Source of the DNA: a virus
Lineage: Duplodnaviria > Caudoviricetes
Length of the DNA stretch: 64,000 nt
Reading direction: 5' to 3' (one strand)
Virus record (IMG/VR): IMGVR_UViG_3300042268_000564
The notes under the pieces: model-generated
The model's database searches: none
What the model saw: the letters and a program-made list of their open reading frames with translations, nothing else
What the model was told of the DNA's origin: nothing
Shown: one piece after another, positions 1 through 47,147 of the stretch
Position numbering within the stretch: position 1 is the stretch's first letter
Layout of the letters: each line of letters starts with the position of its first letter
Translations under genes and position numbers: made by a program

Positions 1-2074
1 GAATCATAGTTGTTGCCCGTGGCAAATCGCAGTCTTTAAAGTAGTTCCTGCCCTGAGCTTCCAGATATTCTTTCATTGCTTCGTTAAATGGCTCGTCAGG
101 ACGCTCAAAAGGCATCTTTGTGATGATTACACAGGATAGGGCATCACCTTGTATATCAACGCCAACCCAGAAGCTGGACACGCCAAGCAGTATCCCATTT
201 TTTGCTTTACGGAATTTTTGTGTTAATACATTTTTGGGACCATCTTCACCCTGCACGAATACGGGACGACCTTTCGCTTCCATTTCGGCTCTTATATCCT
301 GCGACACCTTTGTCATGGATTGGTAAGAGGTGAACAATACGAATATCCCGCCATCAATATGAGGCTCTATTTCTCTTATTTGTTTCGCAATCTGCTGGTC
401 GAAATCGGGTGCCGATGGAATAGGCATATTCGGCATATACAGTAAGCAATTCTGCAAGTAATTGAATGGCGAGTCAAGAATGCTCTGGTGAGTATCTTTC
501 GCATCCAAATCAACTCCTACAGCTCTTGAGAAATAACTTAGCCCTTCATCCGACGCGAGCGTAGCGGATGTGTAACTTACATAAAGCCCTTTGCAAAACT
601 TCTGAATCATCTCAGCCGTGTTTAAGGGAATAGCCGTCACTGTGACTTTTTTACCATACTTTGTTTGCTTCTGTGAACATTGGGCGAAGTAGCAGGTATC
701 ATTTTTAATGTCGCTTGTGGTTTCGAGCAACCGTTTTTTAAAGCCAGTGAAATGTTTAAAGAAGCCTTCACCTACAGTTTCCAGTTCCTTATTTCCTGCT
801 GCTGTGTGGTGAACTTTAGCTTTGCGGATGTAGTTGATAATGATTCCGAGGTATTTATCCACTTCGCTTCTATCGGCTGGTAAATCAGTTTTGAATCTTT
901 TACTGCTTTTGTTACCAATGAATTTCTGAATTTGAGCAAAGTAAGCCTTTGAGGCTTTTAAAAGTTCATTAACAGTAAGTGTCACTTCTTTTTGTTCTGT
1001 CGCATTAAGAACACTGCCGAGAAAGCCCTTGCTGGATATCTCAGGCAAGAACCTGTCAGCCATATAAGGAACCCAGCTTGATGTTATTTCAGTGCCAAAG
1101 AAATTCGCAGCAACACCCGGAACATGGTCAGCCTCATCAAATACGACGGTCTTAGTTTCAGGCAAGAACCCCTTCCCATTTGCAGCGATAACACTGCGAT
1201 TGGCAAAGAATAAAGCATGATTCACAATACACAAATCTGCATCTGCCCATGCTTTTTGTGCTTTGGCGAAATAACAGCTTTGAAAGTAAGGACATTGCCA
1301 TCTCATACAGTCATCACCGTCAGAACAAACCTTTGCCCACATGCCCGCTATTGCACCTTTGTTTACCTCCACGCCTAGTTCTACGGTGTCGCCGATTTGA
1401 GGGTCGGTAATGTACCAGTCCATAAGAACATCGAAGGCTGCCTTTTCTTCTTTTGTCTTGAGTTTATTGCGCACTTCTTGACGTTTGAGGGCAAGCTGGA
1501 ATGACTCAGGCAGGTCGGCGGCTTCATTCGCCATGTCGGCGAACATATCCACTTCCTCTGCTTTTTTCTTTTTAGATTTACGTTTCTTTTTACTCATTTG
1601 CAGGTCAAGAAAGCGATGCCATCTACGCAGGCAGAGGTAATTTGCACGTCCCTTGCATAAAGCGAAAGAGAAAGATATTTTCAGATATTTTTTAAAGATT
1701 TTTTGCAGTAAGGGCAAGTCTTTCTCAGTGAGCTGTGCCTGTAGATTCTTTGTGGAGGTAGAGATGATTACAGGGGCTTCCATCATCTTGCTGGCAATGA
1801 TTGCAGGGATAGAGTAAGCCATGCTTTTCCCTGAGCCTGTAGGGGCTTCAATGATGGCATTTTGTTTGAGATGCAGCATAACATCTGACAAAAGAGTTGA
1901 CATGATTTCTTGTGCCATGCGTGGCTCATAATTTTTTAATGTCTGTTCGAGATAGCCGTTTGCGCTTAAAATGTCGCTGATAAGCTTTTTAATTACTGCT
2001 GGTTTGTCAATGGCTCCGCTATTGAGACGTTGTGTAACATCCAATGCCTTTTTTGTTTTCTTTTTGGCGTGCAT
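1..2074 (-). CDS. DinG/YoaA-family ATP-dependent DNA helicase (3' end runs off window)
   Basis: Hand translation from ATG 2074 with GAGGAA RBS: YEPRMAQ Q-motif, IEAPTGSGKS Walker A, KGRANYLCLRRW, FDEADH motif II, VLFTSY, FWVGVDIQGDALSCVIITKMPF. Absent from the ORF track because it is truncated. Confidence 0.9.
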   Translation of the reverse strand, partial: MHAKKKTKKALDVTQRLNSGAIDKPAVIKKLISDILSANGYLEQTLKNYEPRMAQEIMSTLLSDVMLHLKQNAIIEAPTGSGKSMAYSIPAIIASKMMEAPVIISTSTKNLQAQLTEKDLPLLQKIFKKYLKISFSFALCKGRANYLCLRRWHRFLDLQMSKKKRKSKKKKAEEVDMFADMANEAADLPESFQLALKRQEVRNKLKTKEEKAAFDVLMDWYITDPQIGDTVELGVEVNKGAIAGMWAKVCSDGDDCMRWQCPYFQSCYFAKAQKAWADADLCIVNHALFFANRSVIAANGKGFLPETKTVVFDEADHVPGVAANFFGTEITSSWVPYMADRFLPEISSKGFLGSVLNATEQKEVTLTVNELLKASKAYFAQIQKFIGNKSSKRFKTDLPADRSEVDKYLGIIINYIRKAKVHHTAAGNKELETVGEGFFKHFTGFKKRLLETTSDIKNDTCYFAQCSQKQTKYGKKVTVTAIPLNTAEMIQKFCKGLYVSYTSATLASDEGLSYFSRAVGVDLDAKDTHQSILDSPFNYLQNCLLYMPNMPIPSAPDFDQQIAKQIREIEPHIDGGIFVLFTSYQSMTKVSQDIRAEMEAKGRPVFVQGEDGPKNVLTQKFRKAKNGILLGVSSFWVGVDIQGDALSCVIITKMPFERPDEPFNEAMKEYLEAQGRNYFKDCDLPRATTMI

Positions 2075-2122
2075 AAGGTTCCTCGTGTCTTTTGGTATAT
2101 CTTTATAATGCCGTGAGAAAAG

Positions 2123-2151
2123 AAATAAGAGGGCGAAAAGCCCCCTTATTT
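2123..2151 (-). terminator. Intrinsic terminator
   Basis: Hairpin followed by a T-run on the minus strand, downstream of 2178..2819. Confidence 0.6.
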
Positions 2152-15684: not shown

Positions 15685-16037
15685 ACGTGCCAATAAAAAT
15701 TAAACAAGATATCAAAGTTTTATATTTGCCAAAAGACAGGCTGCTGAACGGAGAATATGAAATAGAATTTTATCAAAATGGTCTATTGTTAAGTCTTGGC
15801 GAGGAATATAAATTAGTGCTGAGAGACACTAAACTTTACGCTGAATTTCTTTATCCTAATGATGGCGATGTGTTCAAAATGAGAATCCAGAGTCGTGTTA
15901 TTGATAGTTCTAATTTTGGAGCTTATATCTGTTGCTCGATGTTTTGTAAAAGATTTCATAACAAATCTAACTTGTTTTTTTCAGGGATTGTGTTAATAGA
16001 TGATGAAATAGCTAATATTGAAATGGACTTACTCTAA
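15681..16037 (+). CDS. Hypothetical protein ending EMDLL
   Basis: FYQNGLLLSLGEEYKL resembles the previous gene. Confidence 0.6.
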   Translation: MNVPIKIKQDIKVLYLPKDRLLNGEYEIEFYQNGLLLSLGEEYKLVLRDTKLYAEFLYPNDGDVFKMRIQSRVIDSSNFGAYICCSMFCKRFHNKSNLFFSGIVLIDDEIANIEMDLL

Positions 16038-17224
16038 TCCATTAAGCAAAAATCCAGCTCATTATCATAGAATTTTTTAATTCTATTCTCTGCAATCTTT
16101 ACATATTCAGGGCTAAGTTCTATTCCGATAAAGTTTTTATTTTGCTCCATTGCTACGATACCAGTAGTCCCAGAGCCAAAGAATGGGTCGAGCACGGTTC
16201 CACCTTCAGGACAGCCAGCAAGAATACATGGCGTTATTAATTCACGAGGATAAGAAGCGTAGTGTTTTTCATTATTGCCTTTAACAGCAATTGTCCAAAC
16301 GTCTCTGCGATTGCGCATCTCATCTACGTGCCTTTTCCCTAATTCCTTTAGACCATCTTTGTTGTGTCCGCCACATTCTGACCAAGTGAAATGATTTTGT
16401 CCGCCGGGCAGGTCACCAGCTCTTACTGATGGCTCTTTGATTGCATCATTGTTGAAATAATATTTTGGCTTTTTGCTGAAAAGGAAAATGTATTCGTGAG
16501 CACGGCTACAACGGTCTTGAACTGATTCAGGCATTGGGTTCCCGCTCCAGCCATGTTTGCAGGCATCGCCAGAAACACCTTTTGCCCAAATGATGTCTTG
16601 ACGTAAAATCCAGCCATCATCTTGTAGTGCAAATGCCACCCTCCAAGGAATTCCCAACAAATTCTTTGCAGGCAATTCTTTGGTCGTTTTTGTTAAGGTA
16701 CCAGTTGTAGAACCTTTATTTGTTTTTTGCATCTCAGAGCCGACTATTGAACCGTCGCTCATCATTCCCTTACCACTGCCAGCATAAGAATCACCTAAAT
16801 TGAGCCATAAAGTGCCTGATGGTTTTAATACCCTACGTATCTCTCTGAATACCACAGTGAGCTTTTCAAGGTATTCTTTCATTGTAAATTCAAGACCAAT
16901 TTGTTTGTCGATTCTTTTTGCGCCACATTTCTCACAGATATCTTTGTAATAGTAGCCATCTATTTTTGTTTCTTCTCGACTCGGACGATTTTGATTAAAC
17001 TCAGGATTGCCAAATTTCTTTGTTCTTGTTGGGTCAGCTACGTGGTCGCAATCAAGCGAACCACCCTCCCACGTAGACGTTCCATAATCACGAAGCCCAA
17101 GGTAGGGAGGCGAGGTTACACAGCAATCAACAGAGTTGTCTGGTAGTTGTTTTAAGACCTCTATGCAGTCACCGTTGATGATGGAGTTGGGTTCAATCGT
17201 GGGTGTTGTAGTGACGTTTATCAT
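16034..17224 (-). CDS. DNA methyltransferase, N4-C/N6-A beta class
   Basis: VTSPPY catalytic motif, WLNLGDSY, DPFFGSGTT SAM-binding motif, FIGIEL. Confidence 0.92.
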   Translation of the reverse strand: MINVTTTPTIEPNSIINGDCIEVLKQLPDNSVDCCVTSPPYLGLRDYGTSTWEGGSLDCDHVADPTRTKKFGNPEFNQNRPSREETKIDGYYYKDICEKCGAKRIDKQIGLEFTMKEYLEKLTVVFREIRRVLKPSGTLWLNLGDSYAGSGKGMMSDGSIVGSEMQKTNKGSTTGTLTKTTKELPAKNLLGIPWRVAFALQDDGWILRQDIIWAKGVSGDACKHGWSGNPMPESVQDRCSRAHEYIFLFSKKPKYYFNNDAIKEPSVRAGDLPGGQNHFTWSECGGHNKDGLKELGKRHVDEMRNRRDVWTIAVKGNNEKHYASYPRELITPCILAGCPEGGTVLDPFFGSGTTGIVAMEQNKNFIGIELSPEYVKIAENRIKKFYDNELDFCLMD

Positions 17225-17265
17225 TTAAACATATCCAATTCTTCAAATTTGTATACTTTTGCCAT
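17221..17265 (-). CDS. 14-aa micro-ORF MAKVYKFEELDMFK
   Basis: GAGGT RBS 10 nt upstream; TGA overlaps the ATG of the MTase at 17224; encodes the EELDMF motif. Confidence 0.6.
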   Translation of the reverse strand: MAKVYKFEELDMFK

Positions 17266-17291
17266 ACAATCGTTTACCTCTGCTATACAAT

Positions 17292-17351
17292 CTTGTTCAT
17301 TTTTTAATTTTGTTCACAAAAAATGAACAAGCATTTTTTGTGAACAAAATT
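17292..17351. repeat. Overlapping perfect inverted repeats built from four TTGTTCA/TGAACAA units
   Basis: 20-bp arms 17306-17325 and 17332-17351; alternative 14-bp arms 17292-17305 and 17318-17331. Confidence 0.85.
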
Positions 17352-18775
17352 TAATCGAACATGTCTATTTCTTGCATTTGAATAGCAGGGAATTGACTAT
17401 TGCTGGACAGGGGAACTTTTTCTTTTTTATGAACATTAGCCGTAGCGCAGGTTTCATTGGCTACAATCTCAAGTCTGGCTTTTGCAGTGCCGAATGATTC
17501 CTTTTCTTTCTCAATACCAATAAAATATCTACCTTCCATCAAGCAGCCAATGCCTGTAGAGCCACTTCCCATAAATGGGTCTAATACAATGCCCCCAGTT
17601 GGCGTTTTTGTTAATTTAGCAAGGTAAGACATGAGGTTGCGATTTTTTACAGCAGGATGTTTGTTTTCTACTTGTCCATCGCACGTCCTATCTCGTTTTG
17701 AGGCTTTCGCACAATAATAGAATCTTGCAATGGAGCCTGAATCGCCATGTTGGTTTTGCGGGTTGCTTTTACCTCGCAAGAGGGTGGTGTTGCTGTCGCC
17801 ATCATAAGCATTTACATCTTTCTTTGTTGCACCTGATTTGGTTTTGCCATATTTATTAAATTCTTGCATTACATCATCAGAGCCGTCGTGAATCACGTTA
17901 CTGGGGAAACGACCATTCTCGCTATTTTTTATGATTTGTTCAGGAGGGAGTATGGGACTGACATTGAAATCAATATTTGCACTTTTGTTTGTTTTCACAC
18001 TTTTAAAGCTGTGCCTTTTTTGTTCATATTTTTCTCTGTCAGATAGACCTATTGGCACTCTGCACTCCTCAATGTTTAAGCCAGCCACACCCCATTTAAG
18101 AGCATTATCAACATAACTGCCCTCATTAGGCTTCGTCATTACCAAAATTGGCTCAAAGGCAGGTTTAAGTGCGTGACTATGCCAACCATTCCATAGTTCG
18201 GCTTCAGGACTTGCTGGTTTTGTAATTTGGATAACATTGCCATGTTCATTGTAGTTATTAGGTCTATGTCCTTGTACCACATTTGCTTTGTTGACATTTG
18301 CCATTCCGCCAGACTTTGTAATGGTCTCAGATATAACCTCTCGTTCAAGCCCTTTTGTCTTGTCTATTTTTTTTGAAATGTTAAGCGATTTGGGAAATCC
18401 TTCTGAGTGAAGAAAGAATATACAATCCTTGAATGTAAAGCCTGCGAGCTGCATAGAGATTGCCATCAAGTCGAAGGTTCTAGTCCCAGCAAATACCAGC
18501 GCAGTACCTCCCGGCTTTAAAACACGACAAACTTCTTTCCAGATAGCAGGAGGTGGAACGCTGCTGTCCCATTCTTTACTCATAAAACCTTTAGCCCCCA
18601 CTTTGTCGGCAGAATGTTGTCCCAAATCAAGCCATTCCTGTAACAAGCCAGCGAGGTCTTTTATCTCGCCTAGCCCGTATGGTGGGTCGGAAATTACAGT
18701 GTCGACAGAGTTGTCGTCCATTTTTTTAAGCTCGTCGTAACAATCGCCGTGGATGAGTTGGTATTTTTCCTGCAT
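17351..18775 (-). CDS. DNA methyltransferase, N6-A/N4-C beta class
   Basis: ISDPPY, GFPKS, GRFPSNVI, HPAVK, DPFMGSGST; ends QEIDMFD. Confidence 0.92.
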   Translation of the reverse strand: MQEKYQLIHGDCYDELKKMDDNSVDTVISDPPYGLGEIKDLAGLLQEWLDLGQHSADKVGAKGFMSKEWDSSVPPPAIWKEVCRVLKPGGTALVFAGTRTFDLMAISMQLAGFTFKDCIFFLHSEGFPKSLNISKKIDKTKGLEREVISETITKSGGMANVNKANVVQGHRPNNYNEHGNVIQITKPASPEAELWNGWHSHALKPAFEPILVMTKPNEGSYVDNALKWGVAGLNIEECRVPIGLSDREKYEQKRHSFKSVKTNKSANIDFNVSPILPPEQIIKNSENGRFPSNVIHDGSDDVMQEFNKYGKTKSGATKKDVNAYDGDSNTTLLRGKSNPQNQHGDSGSIARFYYCAKASKRDRTCDGQVENKHPAVKNRNLMSYLAKLTKTPTGGIVLDPFMGSGSTGIGCLMEGRYFIGIEKEKESFGTAKARLEIVANETCATANVHKKEKVPLSSNSQFPAIQMQEIDMFD

Positions 18776-18785
18776 AATTTTCCCA

Positions 18786-18813
18786 TTGACAATATTGATT
18801 CGCTATTTATAAT
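18786..18813 (+). promoter_or_regulatory. Promoter TTGACA-N16-TATAAT
   Basis: Perfect hexamers. Confidence 0.8.
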
Positions 18814-19183: not shown

Positions 19184-19813
19184 ATGATTTCAGTGATTAC
19201 TAACTTCGGGTGTGATGAGGGATGTTCTTATTGCATAATGCGAGGACATCCTTTTGAACATGTAAAAACAACTGTTCAATCCACTGATTGGGAAGAATTA
19301 AAACGGGTTTTGCAAGGGCAGATAAGAATTTCTGTTTCTGGTGGTGGCGACCCTTTATATCAACTTGAGCAAAATATGGACTGGTGGGAACATTTCTTTG
19401 ACGTTGCACAAGGTCTTGAAATTGACTTACACACAGCAAAACTATCGCCAGTCAGCTTTGCAAGGAATTTCGCAAAGTATGTTTGGCATGTTAAAGACAT
19501 AACAAAACCAATAGCGTTAGAATATAAACAACTGGTTGACTATGGAATACCTGTAAGAATGGTAGCTGTGGGAGAAGAAAGATACACTGAGGATGATTAT
19601 CTGCGTTTCGCAAGGCAAGTTGTGATGATGGGGTTTCAATGTTCTTTCCGTGAATTGGTTGTTGATGGTGAAGCAAAGAATATCGCTTTGACAAGTTTTT
19701 TGGAGACAGAGCGTTGGTGGAAATTTGTTCGGCAAGCTGATTATAATACGTATTTCATGCCCGATAATAATCTTTATGATAAGTTCTTGATAGGAGAAAC
19801 CTCTCATGCTTAA
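19184..19813 (+). CDS. Radical SAM protein
   Basis: GCDEGCSYC (CxxxCxxC), ISVSGGGDP. Confidence 0.85.
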   Translation: MISVITNFGCDEGCSYCIMRGHPFEHVKTTVQSTDWEELKRVLQGQIRISVSGGGDPLYQLEQNMDWWEHFFDVAQGLEIDLHTAKLSPVSFARNFAKYVWHVKDITKPIALEYKQLVDYGIPVRMVAVGEERYTEDDYLRFARQVVMMGFQCSFRELVVDGEAKNIALTSFLETERWWKFVRQADYNTYFMPDNNLYDKFLIGETSHA

Positions 19814-21860
19814 ATTTAAAAATGCATTTTATTTGCCTTCTGGACGAATTTTTCTGCTCGAAACAGGTGACGGTTATCCCATTGAATGTACTGAAATGAG
19901 AGACGTGATGGTTGATAGCAAGCAACATGATGCAGTAAGAACCAGTATCGACCCGAAAGTTATTTGGCAGCATTTGCGCCCGTATGACAAGAAATGGCTT
20001 CTCACTGTGAGCACTCAGAAAGGTTGTCCGCATAATTGTCAATTTTGTTTGGTACCCGGTTCGCCAATATTGATGCAAAACTTTAATTCAATACCGATAG
20101 AAGAAGTGAAATTAAATGATATTGTTTGGGTTCCAACCCCGTCTAATGAGTTCTGCAAATATCCTGCACAATATGCAACAAAAAAATATGTTAGCCTGAG
20201 CAAGGTAACTGGTTTAATTAAACGGGTTTATAGTGGAGAAGTCTTTTCTATCAAAACTAAGTCGGGTTTATGTATAGAATGGATAACACAAGAACACCCT
20301 GTTTATGTGTTACGAAAAGGGCGTTTTAAAGCAACTCCAGCAAATGAGCTTAGTGTTGGTGACACAGTTCTTTCTTTTAAGTCTGCAAGTCTTTCCCCTA
20401 CGAATATTAATTGGGAAAGGGGATGGCTTGCTGGCATGGCGGATGGTGATATGTATAGAGGTTTTTATACAAATACTATGATGCCAAGAATGTCATTAAT
20501 GCAAAATAATATTGAAGTTGTGGCTTTTGCAAAAAGCATTCTAGACAAATATGGGATTAATACGAGTGCAATAAACCCGGTAAAAAACAAGGGAAACGGG
20601 GGCTATATAGTTACATGGGGTGGCAAAGCTGTTGTTGAATTTGATAATTTTATTAATGATGGCGAACAAGATGAGGATTATATGAGAGGGTATATCGCAG
20701 GTTTTTGGGACGCTGAAGGGGCTAACTTGTCTAATGGCGATTGTGTTAGAGCTTATAATAAAAATATAGCTTTTTTAAACAAAGCAGAAAGCTATTGTCA
20801 TCGACTTGGATATATTTCTGCACATGTAGTGCATTCTTCTGGCTGTAGCTACATACAAACAGGAATTCGAAAATTTGATTTTATTACTAAATTTAGACCA
20901 CAGCATCCAAAATCTTTTTTTTGGCGCAATCAAAACAAGACAAGATGGGCGGCTGACACTTATGGAGTGGATACGATTATAGAAATTCAAAAAAAGCAGT
21001 ATTGTGGAGTCGTTCACAATATAGAAACTGAAATGCATTCATACTTTACTGGCGGGGTTGCAAACCATAATTGTGACGTCGCGCCGCTCCCATTCGAGGG
21101 GAATTTAACGAGGAACGAAATTCTTGCTCAGGTGCAATTTTTGATAAGAACGACACCGTATGCAGTTGGCAGCCAAAAGGTTAAGATTGGTTTCGCTCGA
21201 ATGGGCGAGCCTGCCCACAACCTGCAAAACGTATTGGATGCCATACGAGAACTTTTGCCGCCATATGAAAAAGGGAAAACAGTGGAAATTGTTGGCGGGA
21301 CAATGCCATTCTGTAATTTTAAGTGGCTCCCATGCTTTAATTCTATTCTGCCACGAAAAACTATAGAGGGATTAAGCGGTGAAGATGTTCTGAAGCGTGT
21401 TATTGAGTTTAAAGAGACTGTCTGTCATGGTTTTTTGCATTTACAGATAAGTTGTAATTCCACAGATGAGACCAAGCGCAAAGAATTGTTTGGTGGGGCG
21501 GATGTTCTTTCCTTGCCAGAAATAGTTGAAATAGTCAACAAAACTGAAATAACCGACAGAACTATTACTTTGAATTTTATTGTGATGAAGGGGGTAGAGG
21601 TCGATGTTCAGAAGCTTGTAAAAATGGGCTTGAATCCCAACAAGTTCGCAGTGAAACTTATTCCGTTGAATCAGACTAACAATAGCAGTGAGAATGGTCT
21701 TGAAACATTTGCCAATTACGACAACTATGATGATTTGAAAAAGTTGGCAGATGAATTTAAAAGCCATAATATCCCTGTAGTTTTTGATGCAATTGCCAAG
21801 TGCGAAGAAGCTGGACTCTGCTGTGGGCAGTTGGCACATATTTTTATAAAAAATGCTTGA
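19806..21860 (+). CDS. RlmN/Cfr-like radical SAM enzyme interrupted by an intein
   Basis: VSTQKGCPHNCQF|C, GNLTRNEILAQV, RMGEP, KLIPLN, CCGQL; exteins total 342 aa. Confidence 0.85.
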   Translation: MLKFKNAFYLPSGRIFLLETGDGYPIECTEMRDVMVDSKQHDAVRTSIDPKVIWQHLRPYDKKWLLTVSTQKGCPHNCQFCLVPGSPILMQNFNSIPIEEVKLNDIVWVPTPSNEFCKYPAQYATKKYVSLSKVTGLIKRVYSGEVFSIKTKSGLCIEWITQEHPVYVLRKGRFKATPANELSVGDTVLSFKSASLSPTNINWERGWLAGMADGDMYRGFYTNTMMPRMSLMQNNIEVVAFAKSILDKYGINTSAINPVKNKGNGGYIVTWGGKAVVEFDNFINDGEQDEDYMRGYIAGFWDAEGANLSNGDCVRAYNKNIAFLNKAESYCHRLGYISAHVVHSSGCSYIQTGIRKFDFITKFRPQHPKSFFWRNQNKTRWAADTYGVDTIIEIQKKQYCGVVHNIETEMHSYFTGGVANHNCDVAPLPFEGNLTRNEILAQVQFLIRTTPYAVGSQKVKIGFARMGEPAHNLQNVLDAIRELLPPYEKGKTVEIVGGTMPFCNFKWLPCFNSILPRKTIEGLSGEDVLKRVIEFKETVCHGFLHLQISCNSTDETKRKELFGGADVLSLPEIVEIVNKTEITDRTITLNFIVMKGVEVDVQKLVKMGLNPNKFAVKLIPLNQTNNSSENGLETFANYDNYDDLKKLADEFKSHNIPVVFDAIAKCEEAGLCCGQLAHIFIKNA
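20046..21071 (+). mobile_element. Intein with LAGLIDADG homing endonuclease (342 aa)
   Basis: Starts CLVPGSPI, block B TQEHP, WLAGMADGD and YIAGFWDAEG, ends VHNIET...VANHN followed by Cys. Confidence 0.92.
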
Positions 21861-25319: not shown

Positions 25320-26489
25320 ATGGAATTCAAAACAAAACATGCTTATGTCTTATTTGGCAATGCTTTACAACGATTAAAAGAGATTCCTGACGAATCCGTA
25401 CATTGCTGTGTCACAAGCCCCCCTTATTATGGCTTGCGTTCATATTTGCCTGACGAACATCCTGACAAGGTGGATGAAATTGGGCTTGAACAATCACCAA
25501 AAGATTATATCAATAATTTGGTAATGATTTTCAGGGAAATTAGACGTATTTTGCGACCCGACGGCTCGGTCTGGGTGAACATAGGTGACTGTTATGTAGC
25601 TGGGAAAGGGACAGCAAGCCCTACAACTACAGATAGCAAAGCTTTGTTAAAAGAAATGAATGTAAAGCCGAAAGATTTGCTTGGAATCCCTTGGATGTTG
25701 GCTTTTGCCTTAAGAGATGATGGGTGGTATTTGCGTCAAGAAGTCATTTGGTCAAAGGTTTCTGCAATGCCTGAATCAGTGACTGATAGATTTACAAAAG
25801 CGCATGAACAAGTGTTTCTTTTGACAAAAAATGCGAAATATTTTTTTGATAATGAAGCGGTAAAAGAGAAGGCTGTATCGAATAAAAAAGGTTCCAGAGT
25901 ATTTGGCTCAAAAGAACAAGTTGGAACTTTAAGAAATGATATAGGCAGAGAATTTGTTGATAATGGCAAGAGGAATAAACGGTCAGTCTGGCATATTGCA
26001 CCTGAATCGTATAGTGGGGCACATTTTGCTGTTATGCCAAAGAAATTAGTAGAGCCATGTATTCTTGCAGGCACGTCCGAAAAGGGATGTTGTTCTGTTT
26101 GCGGGAATCCTATTGTTAGACTTACAGAAAGACAAGTTGCAACATCAAAGTCTTGTCCTAAAACAGAAGAGGCACACAAGGCTAGAGGCGGTCAAGGTGA
26201 GCCTTCTGGTACCGTGGGGAAGTCGGGCAGTGGAAGGGTTGACGGTTATACTATAACGGTTGGATGGGAGCCAACATGTAGTTGTGGCAAAGGAATTTCG
26301 CCATGCAAAGTAATAGACCCATTCGCTGGCTCTGGAACTGTTGGCGAGGTTGCCTTGAAGTTTGGACGTGATTTTGTCGGCATTGAGCTTAATGGTGAGT
26401 ATTATTCTTTAATAGAGAAGAGATTGCAAGAGGCAGAGCTTGTGGCAAGCATGAAAACAGTGAGCTACGAAGAATTGGAAATGGAATGA
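25320..26489 (+). CDS. DNA methyltransferase, N4-C/N6-A beta class
   Basis: VTSPPY, WVNIGD, AHFAVMP, DPFAGSGT; paralog of 16034..17224; ends YEELEME. Confidence 0.92.
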   Translation: MEFKTKHAYVLFGNALQRLKEIPDESVHCCVTSPPYYGLRSYLPDEHPDKVDEIGLEQSPKDYINNLVMIFREIRRILRPDGSVWVNIGDCYVAGKGTASPTTTDSKALLKEMNVKPKDLLGIPWMLAFALRDDGWYLRQEVIWSKVSAMPESVTDRFTKAHEQVFLLTKNAKYFFDNEAVKEKAVSNKKGSRVFGSKEQVGTLRNDIGREFVDNGKRNKRSVWHIAPESYSGAHFAVMPKKLVEPCILAGTSEKGCCSVCGNPIVRLTERQVATSKSCPKTEEAHKARGGQGEPSGTVGKSGSGRVDGYTITVGWEPTCSCGKGISPCKVIDPFAGSGTVGEVALKFGRDFVGIELNGEYYSLIEKRLQEAELVASMKTVSYEELEME

Positions 26490-39097: not shown

Positions 39098-39345
39098 TGC
39101 AGGATGGTAGATATTATTTCAGGCTTGACCGTGAAAAGATGGTTATGGAGCCTATAAAGTTTGAGAATTTTGGCGATATTTGTAAAGATGATATCGTAAT
39201 GTATGTCGATGTTGATGACTCTGTCACAGATAATCCTATGTTAAGTAGCACGCCATTATTCAAAGTGAATGATGTGGGCACTAATGAACAAGGTGAAAAA
39301 TATCTGCAATCAGACAGAGTTACACAATTCTTTGTTGATTTGTGA
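39097..39345 (+). CDS. Hypothetical protein
   Basis: TAATG-coupled. Confidence 0.6.
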   Translation: MQDGRYYFRLDREKMVMEPIKFENFGDICKDDIVMYVDVDDSVTDNPMLSSTPLFKVNDVGTNEQGEKYLQSDRVTQFFVDL

Positions 39346-40100
39346 TGATTGACCTATTGCATGGCGATTGTCTTGATGAAATGCATAAGATTCAAGACAA
39401 GTCTGTAGATTTCATTTGTTGCGACTTGCCTTACGGCGCAATCGCGCAGGAATGGGACAAGCAGATAGATATTGTCATGTTATGGGAACATTACAATAGA
39501 ATCCTTAAAAAAGATGGTACAATCGCATTATTCGGCTCACAGCCATTTACCACACAATTAATCGCAAGTAACTTAAAGGATTTCAAATATTGCTGGTATT
39601 GGATTAAGAATCAGGGAACCAATTTCTTTCATGCCAATAAAATGCCAATAAGAAAAGTCGAAGAAATATGCATATTCAAAAATGGTAAATATTTCCCTCA
39701 AAAAACAAAAGGGCACGAACCTACCAGAGCCGCAATAGGTTGCAGTAACGGGAACGCCTACCATGGTGATAATAAGCGGAATTATGAGGGTGGCGATACA
39801 ACAAGGATGCCGACGAATGTGTTGAGTTTCAAGTGTGTGGATAATTACAATCGGTTTCATGTGTCAGAAAAGCCTGTTGATTTGTTGAGATATTTGGTGA
39901 AAACATACACAAATGAAAATGATGTGGTGCTTGATAATTGCATGGGCAGTGGCTCTATGGGGGTTGCTTGTATTGAAACAGGACGGCGGTTTGTTGGGAT
40001 AGAACTGGAACAGGAATATTTCGCTATAGCATCTGATAGAATTAATAATGCTTACAGAGATAATTCTGTCGATTTTGAAGAGGTGGACATGTTCGAATGA
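39342..40100 (+). CDS. DNA methyltransferase, N6-A/N4-C beta class
   Basis: CDLPY, EKPVDLL, DNCMGSGS, FVGIE; ends EEVDMFE. Confidence 0.92.
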   Translation: MMIDLLHGDCLDEMHKIQDKSVDFICCDLPYGAIAQEWDKQIDIVMLWEHYNRILKKDGTIALFGSQPFTTQLIASNLKDFKYCWYWIKNQGTNFFHANKMPIRKVEEICIFKNGKYFPQKTKGHEPTRAAIGCSNGNAYHGDNKRNYEGGDTTRMPTNVLSFKCVDNYNRFHVSEKPVDLLRYLVKTYTNENDVVLDNCMGSGSMGVACIETGRRFVGIELEQEYFAIASDRINNAYRDNSVDFEEVDMFE

Positions 40101-41142: not shown

Positions 41143-42345
41143 TTAAACTTGTCTTTGTTCATGGGGGACGGTACGCACCCCACTCAAGAAACGATTGCGG
41201 ATATTCAGGCTCCCATTATAGTCAGCATCTAAAGATACATGACATTGTTCGCAATCATATCTTTCACCATTTCTTGATTCCTTGCAGATTGCTCCGCAAT
41301 TAGAACATATTTGACTCGTATACTCAGGCGCAACAAATGCAAGAAAAACACGGTTTTCCGCACATTTATTGGCTAATCGCCCGAATAAAAGTCTACTATT
41401 CCAGCTCCCCAAAGTTTTTCGATGTTCCTTGGAGGATTTGCCTCTTTTGCTCATGTGACGAACCTTGAGGTCTTCCAAAACAATAGCACAAACATCTTTC
41501 AAATCCAGCTTGTTTACTTGTTGTCCAATATAGTCTTTAATCTCGGCAATAGTCTGTTTTGAGTTTTTACTGCCACGTTTCCTGCGTTTTAACTTTTGGA
41601 TTTTGGCTTCTATGTCTCTACCCAAAAATTCACCTTCAGACGTTGACATCAGTTTCTTGATTCCAACGTCAATACCAACAACCTTGCCAGTTGCTTTAAT
41701 TTCAAGAGTTTCTTTTTCCAGAAACAAATTAACGTACAGTTTATTGTCTATTCTGCGTAGTTGTACAGAAGACTTAACTGCATATCCGCTGTTAATATGT
41801 CTGTTAAACAGAGCATGTTTCTTAGTTGGCAATAATAAAGAAATTCGATTGCCGAAGATAGAGCCTAGTCTTACAGCGAGGTCAAATATTTTCATTTTAT
41901 TGGGAGACAAATATATCGTAACAAGGTCACTATTCAGGTCTATCGAGTTCCCGTTAAAAACAGGAACTTTGACTCTATCTCGGAACTTTCTGTCTTTTGC
42001 CCATACAGACCATTTTTGAGCCGTAAGTGCTTGAAATTTATTTTTGCCTTTGGCATAAGCATATACTCGTTTGTAAGCCTGATAAATTCGTTTCTGGTTC
42101 TTGGCTTGGGTTGCCTTTATCATTTGAACGGCTTGACGATAGGCGCATTTTACGGCTTTGCCACACAACCAAGTCGTAACACGTCTCCACTGTGTTGCAT
42201 TGGCTTTTGAAACAAGCTTCTTTTCGTTCCAATATAGAGTGATAAATTCATTGACAACACGTTGATATTCAACAAACAGCGAATCTAAAAGTTCTCGTTT
42301 TTTCGCTGTTATGAACTTTAAACTGTGTTGTGTACGTTTTATCAT
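41143..42345 (-). mobile_element. tnpB: TnpB RNA-guided endonuclease (IS200/IS605 family), no adjacent TnpA
   Basis: VGIDVG, VLEDL, DADYNG; PEYTSQICSNC..CEQC. Confidence 0.9.
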
Positions 42346-42740: not shown

Positions 42741-44102
42741 ATGATTGAATGTAAAGATAGTTTAGAATTTTTGAAAGAACGCCAAGACTATGAGAATGAT
42801 ATAATTTTCGCAGACCCACCATATGCACTTGGCTCTGAGATAATGATAAGACCTGACGGTAAAGTAGATTACAAAAAAGCCGCTGATTTTATGGGCAAGT
42901 GGGATATGCCCACAGGTGATTGGTGGGAACAGTGGTTTAAAGAAGCTTTCAGAAGCTTAAAGCACGGTGGTTATTGTATCTTATATGGTGTAGACCGCCA
43001 GTTACTTCTTTTTAAGTATTATGCTGCTTTAGCAGGTTTCATAGAACAGCAGAGCCTTTATTGGGCGTTTCTTAGTAATTTCCCAAAATCGGTTGACTTG
43101 AGCAAGATGCTTGATAAACATTATGGCTGCGAGCGAGAGGTTATAGGCAAATGTTTTGATGGCAAAGGTTCTGATAGTGGCAGTGGAATCTATGCCATGA
43201 ATAATGGTGAATCGAACCTCGGAAAAGAATATGATATCACTGCCCCCTCTCATGAATTAGCAAAAAAATATGATGGTTATAAATACAGCATATCACCTCT
43301 AAAACAAACCAACGAAACTGTAATGGTCTTTCAAAAGCCATATAAATCAGGCTCTTGCTTGCACGATACGTTGGCTTATGAAAACGGCGACAATACTTGT
43401 TGTTGTGGTGCGTTAAATATTGATGGAAATAGAGTTGCTACTGATGAAGAGCTTGGCAGGCAACAGGATAAAAGTCCTTTACCGCCAGAAAAAGGGTTTA
43501 ATAATAATAGTATTGGTGGTAAGTTTCAGGCAGGAAATCCAGCAGGACGTTTCCCTGCACAAACCCTTGTTGACTCGAAAATGGCTAAAGCATTAGACAA
43601 TCAAACTGATTCGGCTGATGGTGCTTCAAAATTGTTGCATATTTGTGACTTTGAATCAGATGAGCTTGAGCTTTACTATTATGAACCAAAGGTAAGCAAG
43701 AATGAACGTGACGCAGGTCTGGAAGAACTCGACCCAACAAATGCTAATAGGAACAAAGCTGCTTTAACCGCAGTGGAGAACAGAGAAGCGTCAAGTAAAA
43801 ATCCACATCCAACATTGAAACCATTGTCTTTGAACTTCCGTATTTTGAGCCTGTTTAAAACGCCTAACCCGCAGCGAATTTGCTTCCCTTTTGCTGGCAG
43901 CGGCTCAGAGGTTATCGGGGGCATTAAGGCAGGCTTTACAGATTGGACGGCGTGTGAGCTTTCGCAGGAATATGTAGATATTGCGATGAAGCGTATTGAA
44001 TATTATTCAAAAGGTGCGCCGGAACGCAAGGTAATAAAAGCTGTTGATGCCGATGGTAATGAAAAGAAAGTTATCGTTGAGCAATTGGATATGTTTGAAT
44101 GA
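42741..44102 (+). CDS. DNA methyltransferase, N6-A/N4-C beta class
   Basis: FADPPY, NFPKS, GRFPAQ, HPTLKP, PFAGSGS; paralog of 17351..18775; ends EQLDMFE. Confidence 0.9.
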   Translation: MIECKDSLEFLKERQDYENDIIFADPPYALGSEIMIRPDGKVDYKKAADFMGKWDMPTGDWWEQWFKEAFRSLKHGGYCILYGVDRQLLLFKYYAALAGFIEQQSLYWAFLSNFPKSVDLSKMLDKHYGCEREVIGKCFDGKGSDSGSGIYAMNNGESNLGKEYDITAPSHELAKKYDGYKYSISPLKQTNETVMVFQKPYKSGSCLHDTLAYENGDNTCCCGALNIDGNRVATDEELGRQQDKSPLPPEKGFNNNSIGGKFQAGNPAGRFPAQTLVDSKMAKALDNQTDSADGASKLLHICDFESDELELYYYEPKVSKNERDAGLEELDPTNANRNKAALTAVENREASSKNPHPTLKPLSLNFRILSLFKTPNPQRICFPFAGSGSEVIGGIKAGFTDWTACELSQEYVDIAMKRIEYYSKGAPERKVIKAVDADGNEKKVIVEQLDMFE

Positions 44103-44860
44103 ATGCAATTTATCATGCTGATTGTTTTGAGATTTTCCCAAAAATTGAATCTCAATCAGTGCAATTAATCTTGTGCGATTTACCGTATAACACAACTCAA
44201 TGTTCATGGGATTGCATATTGCCTCTCGACAAACTCTGGCAAGAATATGAGCGGATTATAAAGCCTAATGGCGCAATTGTGTTAACGGCGGCTCAACCAT
44301 TCACCAGCGAGCTTGTAATGAGCAATAAAAAGCTTTTTAAATATGAATGGATTTGGCGCAAAACAAAAGCACAGCATTTTGCTCAGGCACCATATCGTCC
44401 CATGACGAACCATGAAAGTGTCTTGGTATTTTCCTTTGGCGGCACAGCTAAAAATGCTAATAATCGCATGAAATATAATCCGCAGGGAATTGTAAAATGC
44501 AATATTACTTGCAAAGGGAAAAAGGCTACGCATTCAGAACACCGCAGTAGGTTAACAGACCAAGATGATTATGTTCAGGAATACACTAATTATCCGAAAA
44601 CGGTGATTGATTTCGCAAATGAGGGGAAGACTATTCATCCGACACAGAAACCTCTTTCTTTATTCGAGTATATCATAGAAACATATACTGACGCAGATGA
44701 CTTGGTTCTTGATAATTGTGCAGGCTCGTTTACTACTGCTGTCGCCTGCATCAACACTGATAGACGATATATTTGCATAGAGAAAGAGCAAAGATATTTT
44801 GAACTTGGCAAAGAGCGGATTGATTCGCATGTTCGAGAATATGATATGTTTAGTGATTAA
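44099..44860 (+). CDS. DNA methyltransferase, N6-A/N4-C beta class
   Basis: CDLPY, HPTQKP, DNCAGS; ends REYDMFSD. Confidence 0.92.
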   Translation: MNAIYHADCFEIFPKIESQSVQLILCDLPYNTTQCSWDCILPLDKLWQEYERIIKPNGAIVLTAAQPFTSELVMSNKKLFKYEWIWRKTKAQHFAQAPYRPMTNHESVLVFSFGGTAKNANNRMKYNPQGIVKCNITCKGKKATHSEHRSRLTDQDDYVQEYTNYPKTVIDFANEGKTIHPTQKPLSLFEYIIETYTDADDLVLDNCAGSFTTAVACINTDRRYICIEKEQRYFELGKERIDSHVREYDMFSD

Positions 44861-45664
44861 ATGACAAAATTCCAATGGACACCAGAGCTGGAAGTAAAAG
44901 TCCTTGCCTTGAAAAAGCGAGGTTTAACTTTTGCTCAAATAGCGGCTGAAATAGGAACCACAGAGCGTAGTGCAAAACATAAGGTTAGACGCTTAAGACA
45001 AGCAATGAATCAAGATAGGTATAAACATACTGACGAGAAATTGAAGCAAATACAAATTGCAGGATTAACACCTTGCCGCCGGATTTTGGAAACTCACGCA
45101 GGGTTCGGTGGTTTAACAAGACATTATGCGCAGGTGGCAGCCACTGTGACAAGCATTGAAATAAAGCAGGAACGAATTGATGAGATAAAAGCTTTGAGCT
45201 TGCCTAATGTGGAGCTGATTAAAGGTGATTCTGAAGTTGAGATTTATCGTCTGTTGCACGAACGTAGGGTTTTTGATGTGATAGATGTTGACCCTTATGG
45301 TTTGCCAAGTCGATATTTCCCTCATATTTTTGGGTTGATTGATGACGGTATATTGTTCTTAACATTCCCTGTAATGGGTGTTGCGCAGATTAATAAGATG
45401 ACGATAGCTCATTATCGTGTTTTCTGGGGGATAGAATTATCTGACAAAGATGTTTATCTGGATAAAATAAAGGCAAGGCTTGCAGAATATGCGTTTATGC
45501 ACAAACGGCAAATAGAAATTCTTGATGAGAAGCGAATCAATAGAATCTACAGGCTGGCTATTCAGGTAAAGAAAACATCATTGCTCGACATGCTTGGGCT
45601 TAAGGTGAATCGGAATAAAAAGATTGTTACAAAACAATATGAAGAAATGGACATGTTTGACTAA
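44861..45664 (+). CDS. HTH-fused SAM-dependent methyltransferase-like protein
   Basis: N-terminal WTPE...GLTFAQIAAEIG HTH; LETHAGFGG motif I; FDVIDVDPYG; ends EEMDMFD. Confidence 0.7.
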   Translation: MTKFQWTPELEVKVLALKKRGLTFAQIAAEIGTTERSAKHKVRRLRQAMNQDRYKHTDEKLKQIQIAGLTPCRRILETHAGFGGLTRHYAQVAATVTSIEIKQERIDEIKALSLPNVELIKGDSEVEIYRLLHERRVFDVIDVDPYGLPSRYFPHIFGLIDDGILFLTFPVMGVAQINKMTIAHYRVFWGIELSDKDVYLDKIKARLAEYAFMHKRQIEILDEKRINRIYRLAIQVKKTSLLDMLGLKVNRNKKIVTKQYEEMDMFD

Positions 45665-46170
45665 TGGGAATAGGTAAAAACAACGACTTTACGAGTAAAA
45701 AAGTGGAATACAGCACGCCTCTAAGCTTGTTCGTCCCTTTGAAAGATGAATTTGATATTACGGTAGACGTGTGCGCTGATGAAACTAATTTTAAGTGTGA
45801 GACATATTTTAGTGTCGATGACGATGCTTTAAGGCAGGATTGGACAGGGAACTGCTGGATGAACCCCCCGTTTACAAAAGATTTGAATAAATGGGTACGT
45901 AAAGCAAGAAACGATGCGAATGAATTTGGCGGGACAAAGGTTTGTCTTGTTCCAGTCAGGTCGAACACAAAGTGGTGGGGTGAGGTAATTGAAGACGCGG
46001 AAGTTAGATTTATTATTGGCGAGGTAAATTTTAATGATGAGCCTAGAGGACTGTGGTTGCCAATGTGTATATTGATTTTCGGCGAAAAGGCAAAAGCGGG
46101 AAAGTTTTCTACCATTTATTATAAAAAAAACACGCAAGTTAAAAATAATGAAATGGACATGTTTGATTAA
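45664..46170 (+). CDS. Phage N6-adenine DNA methyltransferase (small phage Dam family)
   Basis: STPLSLF..L..EF, DVCA, DALRQDW, WMNPPF, LVPVRSNTKWW; ends NEMDMFD. Confidence 0.9.
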   Translation: MGIGKNNDFTSKKVEYSTPLSLFVPLKDEFDITVDVCADETNFKCETYFSVDDDALRQDWTGNCWMNPPFTKDLNKWVRKARNDANEFGGTKVCLVPVRSNTKWWGEVIEDAEVRFIIGEVNFNDEPRGLWLPMCILIFGEKAKAGKFSTIYYKKNTQVKNNEMDMFD

Positions 46171-47147
46171 TGGCAGGGATAGAAGACCGTATAACAAACT
46201 ATGATGGTCAGCATTGCTGGCAATATGACATTCGATTGCGGAACCGTGACGAAGACATTGCCGAGTCTGGCTTGTCGCTTGACGAGATAGCAGCTTTAAG
46301 GTGTTCAGATTTTACTTTGCAACAAGAACCAAAAGAACAGAGCCATCACGAGATAAAACGATTCATTGAACGACACGAATGGCTTGGCACGATGCCACTT
46401 TATGCAACCCACTATTTTACGGCAAGATACAAAAACATCCTTGCAGGCGTGGTAATTATGGGTTTGCCCGGTAATTTTTCTAAGTTGCTTGGCAAGAAGT
46501 CTGAAGACCTTGAGCGTTTAATTAGTCGAGGTGCTTGTGTTTCGTGGTCGCCAAAGAACCTTGCGAGTAATTTGATTTCGTTTGCGATGAATTGGATGGT
46601 TCAGAATACAGAGTTTCGATTATTCACTGCATATAGCGATACTGAAGCAAAAGAACTGGGAACAATCTACCAAGCATGTAATTTTTATTACTTGGGCAAG
46701 ATTGCTGGTGCTACTTGGCAATATAAGTTGCCTGATGGAAAGCTAGTCTCTGACAGGCACTTTCGTAGTAGAAGTGTTTACAAAAGGCTCGCAAAAGCTG
46801 CTGGAATCTTTTGGGAAGCAAGTTGGCAGACCAGAGATACGGTACATCTGGATAGGATGCCTGACGAGGTTGCTTTTATTCTAAGGCAGATGTCGAAAGA
46901 TTATCAAAATTCCTGCGAACGTAGGAAAATATCGGCAAAACATAAATATGCCTATGTTTTGGGTAGAGACAAGCGAGAAACAAAAGCTTTACGGCGTGAA
47001 TTTGAATCAAGAAACAAAACATTTCCTTATCCAAAAGATAGATTGTCGCATGTTGAGGAACAAGTAGAATTTGAGGCACCTCTTGAGAATAAACTGGACG
47101 ATGTTTTATTAAAGCCTGCCTATACAGAAGTTGACATGTTTGAATAA
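46170..47147 (+). CDS. Mom-like adenine-modification protein (GNAT fold)
   Basis: FIERHEWLG, ISRGAC..PKNLASNLI, AYSD...GTIYQACNFYYLG; ends TEVDMFE. Confidence 0.75.
   Translation: MAGIEDRITNYDGQHCWQYDIRLRNRDEDIAESGLSLDEIAALRCSDFTLQQEPKEQSHHEIKRFIERHEWLGTMPLYATHYFTARYKNILAGVVIMGLPGNFSKLLGKKSEDLERLISRGACVSWSPKNLASNLISFAMNWMVQNTEFRLFTAYSDTEAKELGTIYQACNFYYLGKIAGATWQYKLPDGKLVSDRHFRSRSVYKRLAKAAGIFWEASWQTRDTVHLDRMPDEVAFILRQMSKDYQNSCERRKISAKHKYAYVLGRDKRETKALRREFESRNKTFPYPKDRLSHVEEQVEFEAPLENKLDDVLLKPAYTEVDMFE

Follow-up and report, generated by a model that had tools for sequence, protein, structure and literature searches.

Is a frame of 14 codons that encodes essentially only a protein tag a gene in its own right, a leader for the gene behind it, or the leftover end of another gene? 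The question is raised by a phage locus in which such a frame lies between two methyltransferase genes, within the window analysed in this study (64,000 nt, part of a 393,839-nt virus record). The initial annotation had proposed a dedicated micro-gene whose product competes for the pocket of the sliding clamp, and had offered a coupling leader or the leftover 3' end of a deleted tagged gene as alternatives. The features directly concerned are given below.

17221-17265, minus strand: the 14-codon open reading frame (ORF), very probably the closing codons of a tail that once belonged to the upstream methyltransferase; its ATG stands opposite an ATC of the related phage L092.
17351-18775, minus strand: 474-aa N6/N4 DNA methyltransferase (PF01555), with a newer tail ending QEIDMFD; very probably the donor of the orphaned tail.
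16034-17224, minus strand: 396-aa N6/N4 DNA methyltransferase (PF01555), with a weak Shine-Dalgarno (SD) sequence of its own; its ATG overlaps the stop of the 14-codon ORF.
17276-17280, minus strand: SD-like GAGGT, 10 nt before the ATG of the 14-codon ORF; a TTG in another frame, at 17269, lies 6 nt from it.

Translation of window positions 17221-17265 on the minus strand gives 14 residues and a stop. This TGA and the ATG of the 396-aa gene at 17224 overlap as ATGA, the arrangement expected of a coupling upstream ORF (uORF), whose stop overlaps or adjoins the start that follows. All annotated elements, namely the ORF with its ATG, the GAGGT and the stop/start overlap, are present as described and recur in three further assemblies (Logan, JGI), in which the 301 nt spanning the ORF are identical, thus an assembly artefact was excluded as its source. 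Fusion to a neighbour by frameshift or readthrough was rejected on both sides: a TAA stands before the downstream ATG in the frame of the 396-aa gene, and the frame of the 14-codon ORF is offset from that of the 474-aa gene, with a TGA closing it at about 17314.

The tag carried by the peptide is shared by other proteins of the phage. In 315 long ORFs the pattern ExDMF was matched 11 times, and eight of these matches lie at the extreme C-terminus, a region holding about 0.9% of the residues, which is far beyond chance. The eight proteins with a terminal DMF tag comprise four N6/N4 methyltransferases, Dam, Mom, a weak methyltransferase-like match and a DUF1848 protein. Two further loci serve for comparison.

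42741-47147, plus strand: stack of five tagged genes (two N6/N4 methyltransferases, the weak methyltransferase-like match, Dam and Mom), in which every start overlaps or abuts the preceding tagged stop.
39342-40100, plus strand: N6/N4 methyltransferase with the same C-terminal tag.

The LDMF core of the tag fits the pentameric beta-clamp-binding motif, known by its consensus QL(S/D)LF and by an internal QADMF in E. coli Pol III alpha (PMC11139829); the phage DnaE has an internal QMDMF near residue 925, at about the position of QADMF in the E. coli protein. As in such motifs, a hydrophobic-Asp-Met-Phe core stands on the tails of DNA-acting enzymes, whereas position 1 is Glu instead of the conserved Gln in most copies, a change probably matched to a divergent phage clamp. 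A cognate clamp is available in the same genome: a 450-aa protein has a weak Pfam match to the beta-clamp C-terminal domain, and its structural model (pLDDT 87) matches solved beta clamps with a Foldseek E of 4e-25 at 12-19% identity. This divergent beta sliding clamp (L081:562-1914, plus strand; genome 154532-155884) has 16 relatives at 48-76% identity. It is likely the partner of the Glu-for-Gln tag; as a clamp and a DnaE are both encoded by the phage, the target is likely to be this clamp and not the host's. We infer that the ExDMF tag is probably a motif for beta-clamp binding, adapted to the clamp that the phage itself encodes. Among more distant methyltransferase homologues an ExDMF ending was found in none of 236, and a loose clamp-motif-like tail pattern in 37 of 236.

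Complex prediction with the phage clamp and the 30-codon stop-to-stop frame that holds the peptide gave 0.59, against 0.00 for the best of three controls, with runs agreeing in at least 87% of contacts and a partner pLDDT of at least 58. This is weak support. Of the benchmark pairs, 58 of 80 solved and 2 of 110 mismatched ones attained the mark; seven solved pairs and both passing mismatches lie at 0.60 or under, thus 0.59 is a low pass, and it may reflect memory of solved clamp-peptide complexes.

Tag copies were also observed outside the methyltransferases. A 189-aa protein without a Pfam match, encoded directly before dnaE (L082:10409-10978, plus strand; genome about 265408-265977), bears an N-terminal tag EQIDMFDD, and a long ORF on the minus strand at genome 318883-321216, overlapping window 1-2149, holds an internal copy after a lysine run. 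The terminal tag of the DUF1848 protein (L083:7857-8768, minus strand; genome 107856-108767) is a hint that members of this family work on DNA at the clamp. The remark that the methyltransferase coupled to the 14-codon ORF has the most degenerate tail of its own carries little weight, as decayed tags are found on two more of the genome's methyltransferases: ELEME at window 25320-26489, where the L092 counterpart ends QLEMDME, and EYDMT at genome 66169-67089.

The origin of the 14-codon ORF was sought by comparison with relatives. Three orthologues of the 474-aa enzyme are found in the clade (P0138-P0140, n=3, 55-63% identity), and all end ELDMF(D/E), as does the 14-codon ORF, whereas the 474-aa enzyme itself now ends EIDMF; the ELDMF tail is on this ground taken as the older one. 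L092 is the closest related phage, syntenic at this locus, with a matching divergent neighbouring operon. Its orthologue is a 544-aa ORF that ends in the sequence of the 14-codon ORF, reading EQDC, seven residues, ELDMFE and a stop that overlaps the GTG of the next methyltransferase fragment; the EQDC codons also stand upstream of the ATG in the spacer of our phage, in the frame of the 14-codon ORF. When a 21-nt tandem repeat is reduced to a single copy, the region of the 14-codon ORF agrees with the final 19 codons of the L092 orthologue at 45 of 57 nt, with the same frame and the same stop position. As expected of a remnant, the homology is thus in frame and in place with the 3' end of a longer ORF, and neither start codon nor ribosome-binding site (RBS) is conserved in L092, which has ATC, an internal Ile codon, opposite the ATG and lacks GAGGT. 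The initial annotation had named conservation of start, RBS and frame in related phages as the check on its micro-gene, and a longer ORF lacking a conserved ATG and RBS as the outcome against it; only the frame is kept, which by that standard speaks against a dedicated tag-only competitor. The gene that follows the L092 orthologue is a different, broken N6/N4 methyltransferase (L092:11632-12657), in which a 46-aa N-terminal piece stops at the DPPY motif and is followed by an HNH gene and then by a second N-terminal methyltransferase copy, split by an apparent short insertion.

The homology to L092 extends through the whole spacer, in which the following features were found.

17221-17362, minus strand: spacer together with the final 12 nt of the 474-aa gene; colinear with the L092 orthologue over the latter's last 105 nt.
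17227-17247, minus strand: tag-coding DNA (FEELDMF), which doubles as the initiation region of the next gene; it agrees with the L090 orthologue's tail at 21/21 nt.
17251-17292, minus strand: 21-nt in-frame tandem duplication (repeat family D6, 81% identity), single copy in L092.
17303-17354, no strand assigned: A+T-rich 23-bp hairpin (repeats I1, I8) overlapping the stop of the 474-aa gene.

The colinear alignment has 78 identities, 25 mismatches and 3 gap columns (78/106; 104 versus 105 nt) and depends on two hand-chosen deletions, a 17-nt inverted copy and the 21-nt tandem copy. With the spacer left unedited, the L092 tail ranks first among 3,077 ORF tails, with or without the tag (shuffle p of 0.001 and 0.004, respectively). 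The tail that the 474-aa gene has at present shows no significant similarity to that of L092 (p about 0.09 without the tag; rank 19 of 2,577), and the ORF-tail comparison found no source for it. The linker homology was seen in one relative only, L092, represented by six contigs of one sequence; the L090 and L091 orthologues end directly in ELDMF, with no micro-ORF after either. The GAGGT lies within the upstream copy of the tandem repeat and the ATG within the downstream copy, and the final 20 nt overlapping the tag DNA match the junction at 44083-44102 at 19 of 20 positions. Further up, the hairpin is due to the 17-nt inverted copy at 17315-17331, which is absent from L092; no U-tract follows it on the coding strand, and no promoter or terminator above chance was found in the spacer.

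Signs of decay accompany the homology, namely the inverted copy, the frame offset and a terminal change from E to K. DMF is followed by D or E in 10 of the 11 other tags and by S in the remaining one, and the K of the 14-codon ORF suggests relaxed selection on the peptide. The ELDMF core shows only synonymous differences from L092, as expected of DNA that was once an enzyme tail and that overlaps the start region of the next gene. As judged from sequence comparison, the 14-codon ORF is not an independent gene, and it is in our view very likely the orphaned old tail of the upstream methyltransferase, a history that is well supported. The suggestion of a leftover 3' end finds support as to the remnant tail but needs amending as to its source, as no gene was deleted and the upstream methyltransferase is intact.

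The following course of events is proposed. The ancestral methyltransferase would have ended in linker and ELDMF(E/D), with its stop overlapping the start of the next methyltransferase, as in L092. About 27 extra codons with a new tag and stop would have arisen before the old tail, by tail duplication or import, and the old tail, no longer coding for the enzyme, would have taken up the 17-nt inverted copy and the 21-nt tandem copy with a net loss of 1 nt. The 396-aa gene would thereby have been deprived of direct coupling to the 474-aa enzyme, since 126 nt now separate its start from the nearest enzyme stop and its own SD is weak. Ribosomes might then enter at GAGGT and ATG in the old tail, translate the 14 codons and reinitiate at the ATGA overlap that was inherited, so that the ORF would act as a modest coupling leader, and the peptide would be a by-product that has the tag only by descent. 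We give about even chances that the ORF is translated and serves as a weak coupling leader for the downstream methyltransferase.

Overlaps of the NTGA type and uORFs that deliver ribosomes are established (PMC12548453; PMC13285730), and the 14-codon ORF resembles coupling uORFs with an NTGA (-4) overlap in its shortness, in the stop overlapping the next start, in the weak SD of the downstream gene and in a peptide that may be immaterial; it differs in being traceable to an orphaned gene tail and in its long SD spacing, and translation and coupling are putative here. The features of its own initiation site point both ways: the SD energy of -7.2 kcal/mol is typical of real genes in this phage, exceeding that of 56% of long genes, and is equalled by 8.5% of random ATGs. 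The spacing of 10 nt is atypical, as 78 of 91 phage genes with a 5-nt SD match have 4-8 nt and 5 of 91 have at least 10 nt, and the out-of-frame TTG at 17269, at the modal 6 nt from the same GAGGT, is better placed than the ATG. The SD of the 396-aa gene (-3.3) equals those of three coupled junctions of the 42.7-47.1 kb stack and is mostly paired in the predicted fold.

The same history may have left a frame that is hardly translated at all, a reading to which we give a lesser but still substantial probability. It would account for the long SD spacing and the competing TTG, for an ATG partly paired in predicted folds and for the lack of a call by standard gene callers, although ORFs so short escape them; an in-frame ATG 8-25 codons from the gene end occurs by chance in 27% of gene tails. 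The tag DNA would persist because the event is recent and because its last 20 nt double as the downstream gene's start region. Against a silent remnant, no more than 11 of the genome's 429 gene tails (2.6%) combine an in-frame ATG with a 5-nt SD, and the downstream gene is intact yet has a weak SD. The opposite direction of change, in which the ancestor had enzyme, spacer and micro-gene and a deletion fused them in the L092 lineage, would agree with linker homology in a single relative and with the missing source of the present tail, but we regard it as very improbable, given that L090 and L091 end directly in ELDMF with no micro-ORF following, that the L090 tail is identical to the tag of the 14-codon ORF over 21 nt, and that EQDC codons of a coding linker are kept upstream of the ATG.

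That the peptide is a selected, free clamp-binding product, competing for the pocket of the phage or host clamp and tuning enzyme loading or replication, seems unlikely. The intact ELDMF core with its synonymous changes would fit, as would the weak preference in complex prediction, and free motif peptides are known to bind beta clamps with micromolar affinity (PMC11139829). Such a peptide would, however, oppose the phage's own tagged enzymes and DnaE, and its start, SD and terminal acidic residue are not conserved. An unstructured 14-mer is also probably short-lived, which counts against selection for it. Equally unlikely is a newborn micro-gene, an orphaned tail that gained SD and ATG and whose peptide is now selected and tunes traffic on the phage's own clamp. 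The proposed inhibition of host replication is a poor fit for a phage that has a beta clamp of its own and tags many of its own enzymes; a Gln-to-Glu change at motif position 1 moreover greatly lowers affinity for an E. coli-type clamp (PMC11139829). Phage products that engage the beta clamp include Twort Gp168 (PMC11139829) and MuC (bioRxiv 10.1101/2025.01.04.631326), but the former obstructs the host clamp's DNA channel and the latter is a complete transcription factor, whereas the product considered here would be no more than a 14-mer derived from a remnant, and the phage that carries it has a clamp of its own.

The 14-codon ORF is carried by one lineage only. Conservation as a free ORF with start and RBS, expected of a functional microprotein, was not found in relatives, nor was any free tag-only ORF in the clade loci retrieved, all of them fragments. 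Exact and degenerate DNA searches of IMG/VR gave no match to the peptide. A tag-plus-stop search gave 22 loci, which are uninformative either way, as none could be placed in this clade and several are short frames at about the chance rate. Scans for related loci, run with the clamp, the radical SAM gene and each of the two methyltransferases, turned up no close relative that could be used, a search of the literature found no paper on phage tag-only clamp peptides, and no host was found for the phage.

With the orphaned tail as the preferred reading, the locus clearly illustrates how tails turn over where clamp-tagged phage methyltransferases are stacked, and it cautions that a tag-only ORF found among such genes can be a remnant. 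That the 474-aa enzyme is still tagged after losing its old tail indirectly supports the importance of the tag. If coupling is true, the locus would document the traceable birth of a coupling uORF from a gene end; the peptide itself would be of high interest only if functional.

Several neighbouring features were recorded in addition. A perfect sigma-70 consensus promoter of the divergent operon lies at window 18786-18813 on the plus strand, and a similar sequence stands upstream of the L092 orthologue. At window 19806-21860 a 684-aa gene with intein and LAGLIDADG Pfam matches adjoins the radical SAM gene, and a TnpB/Cas12f-like gene is located between tagged methyltransferase genes at window 41143-42345 on the minus strand.
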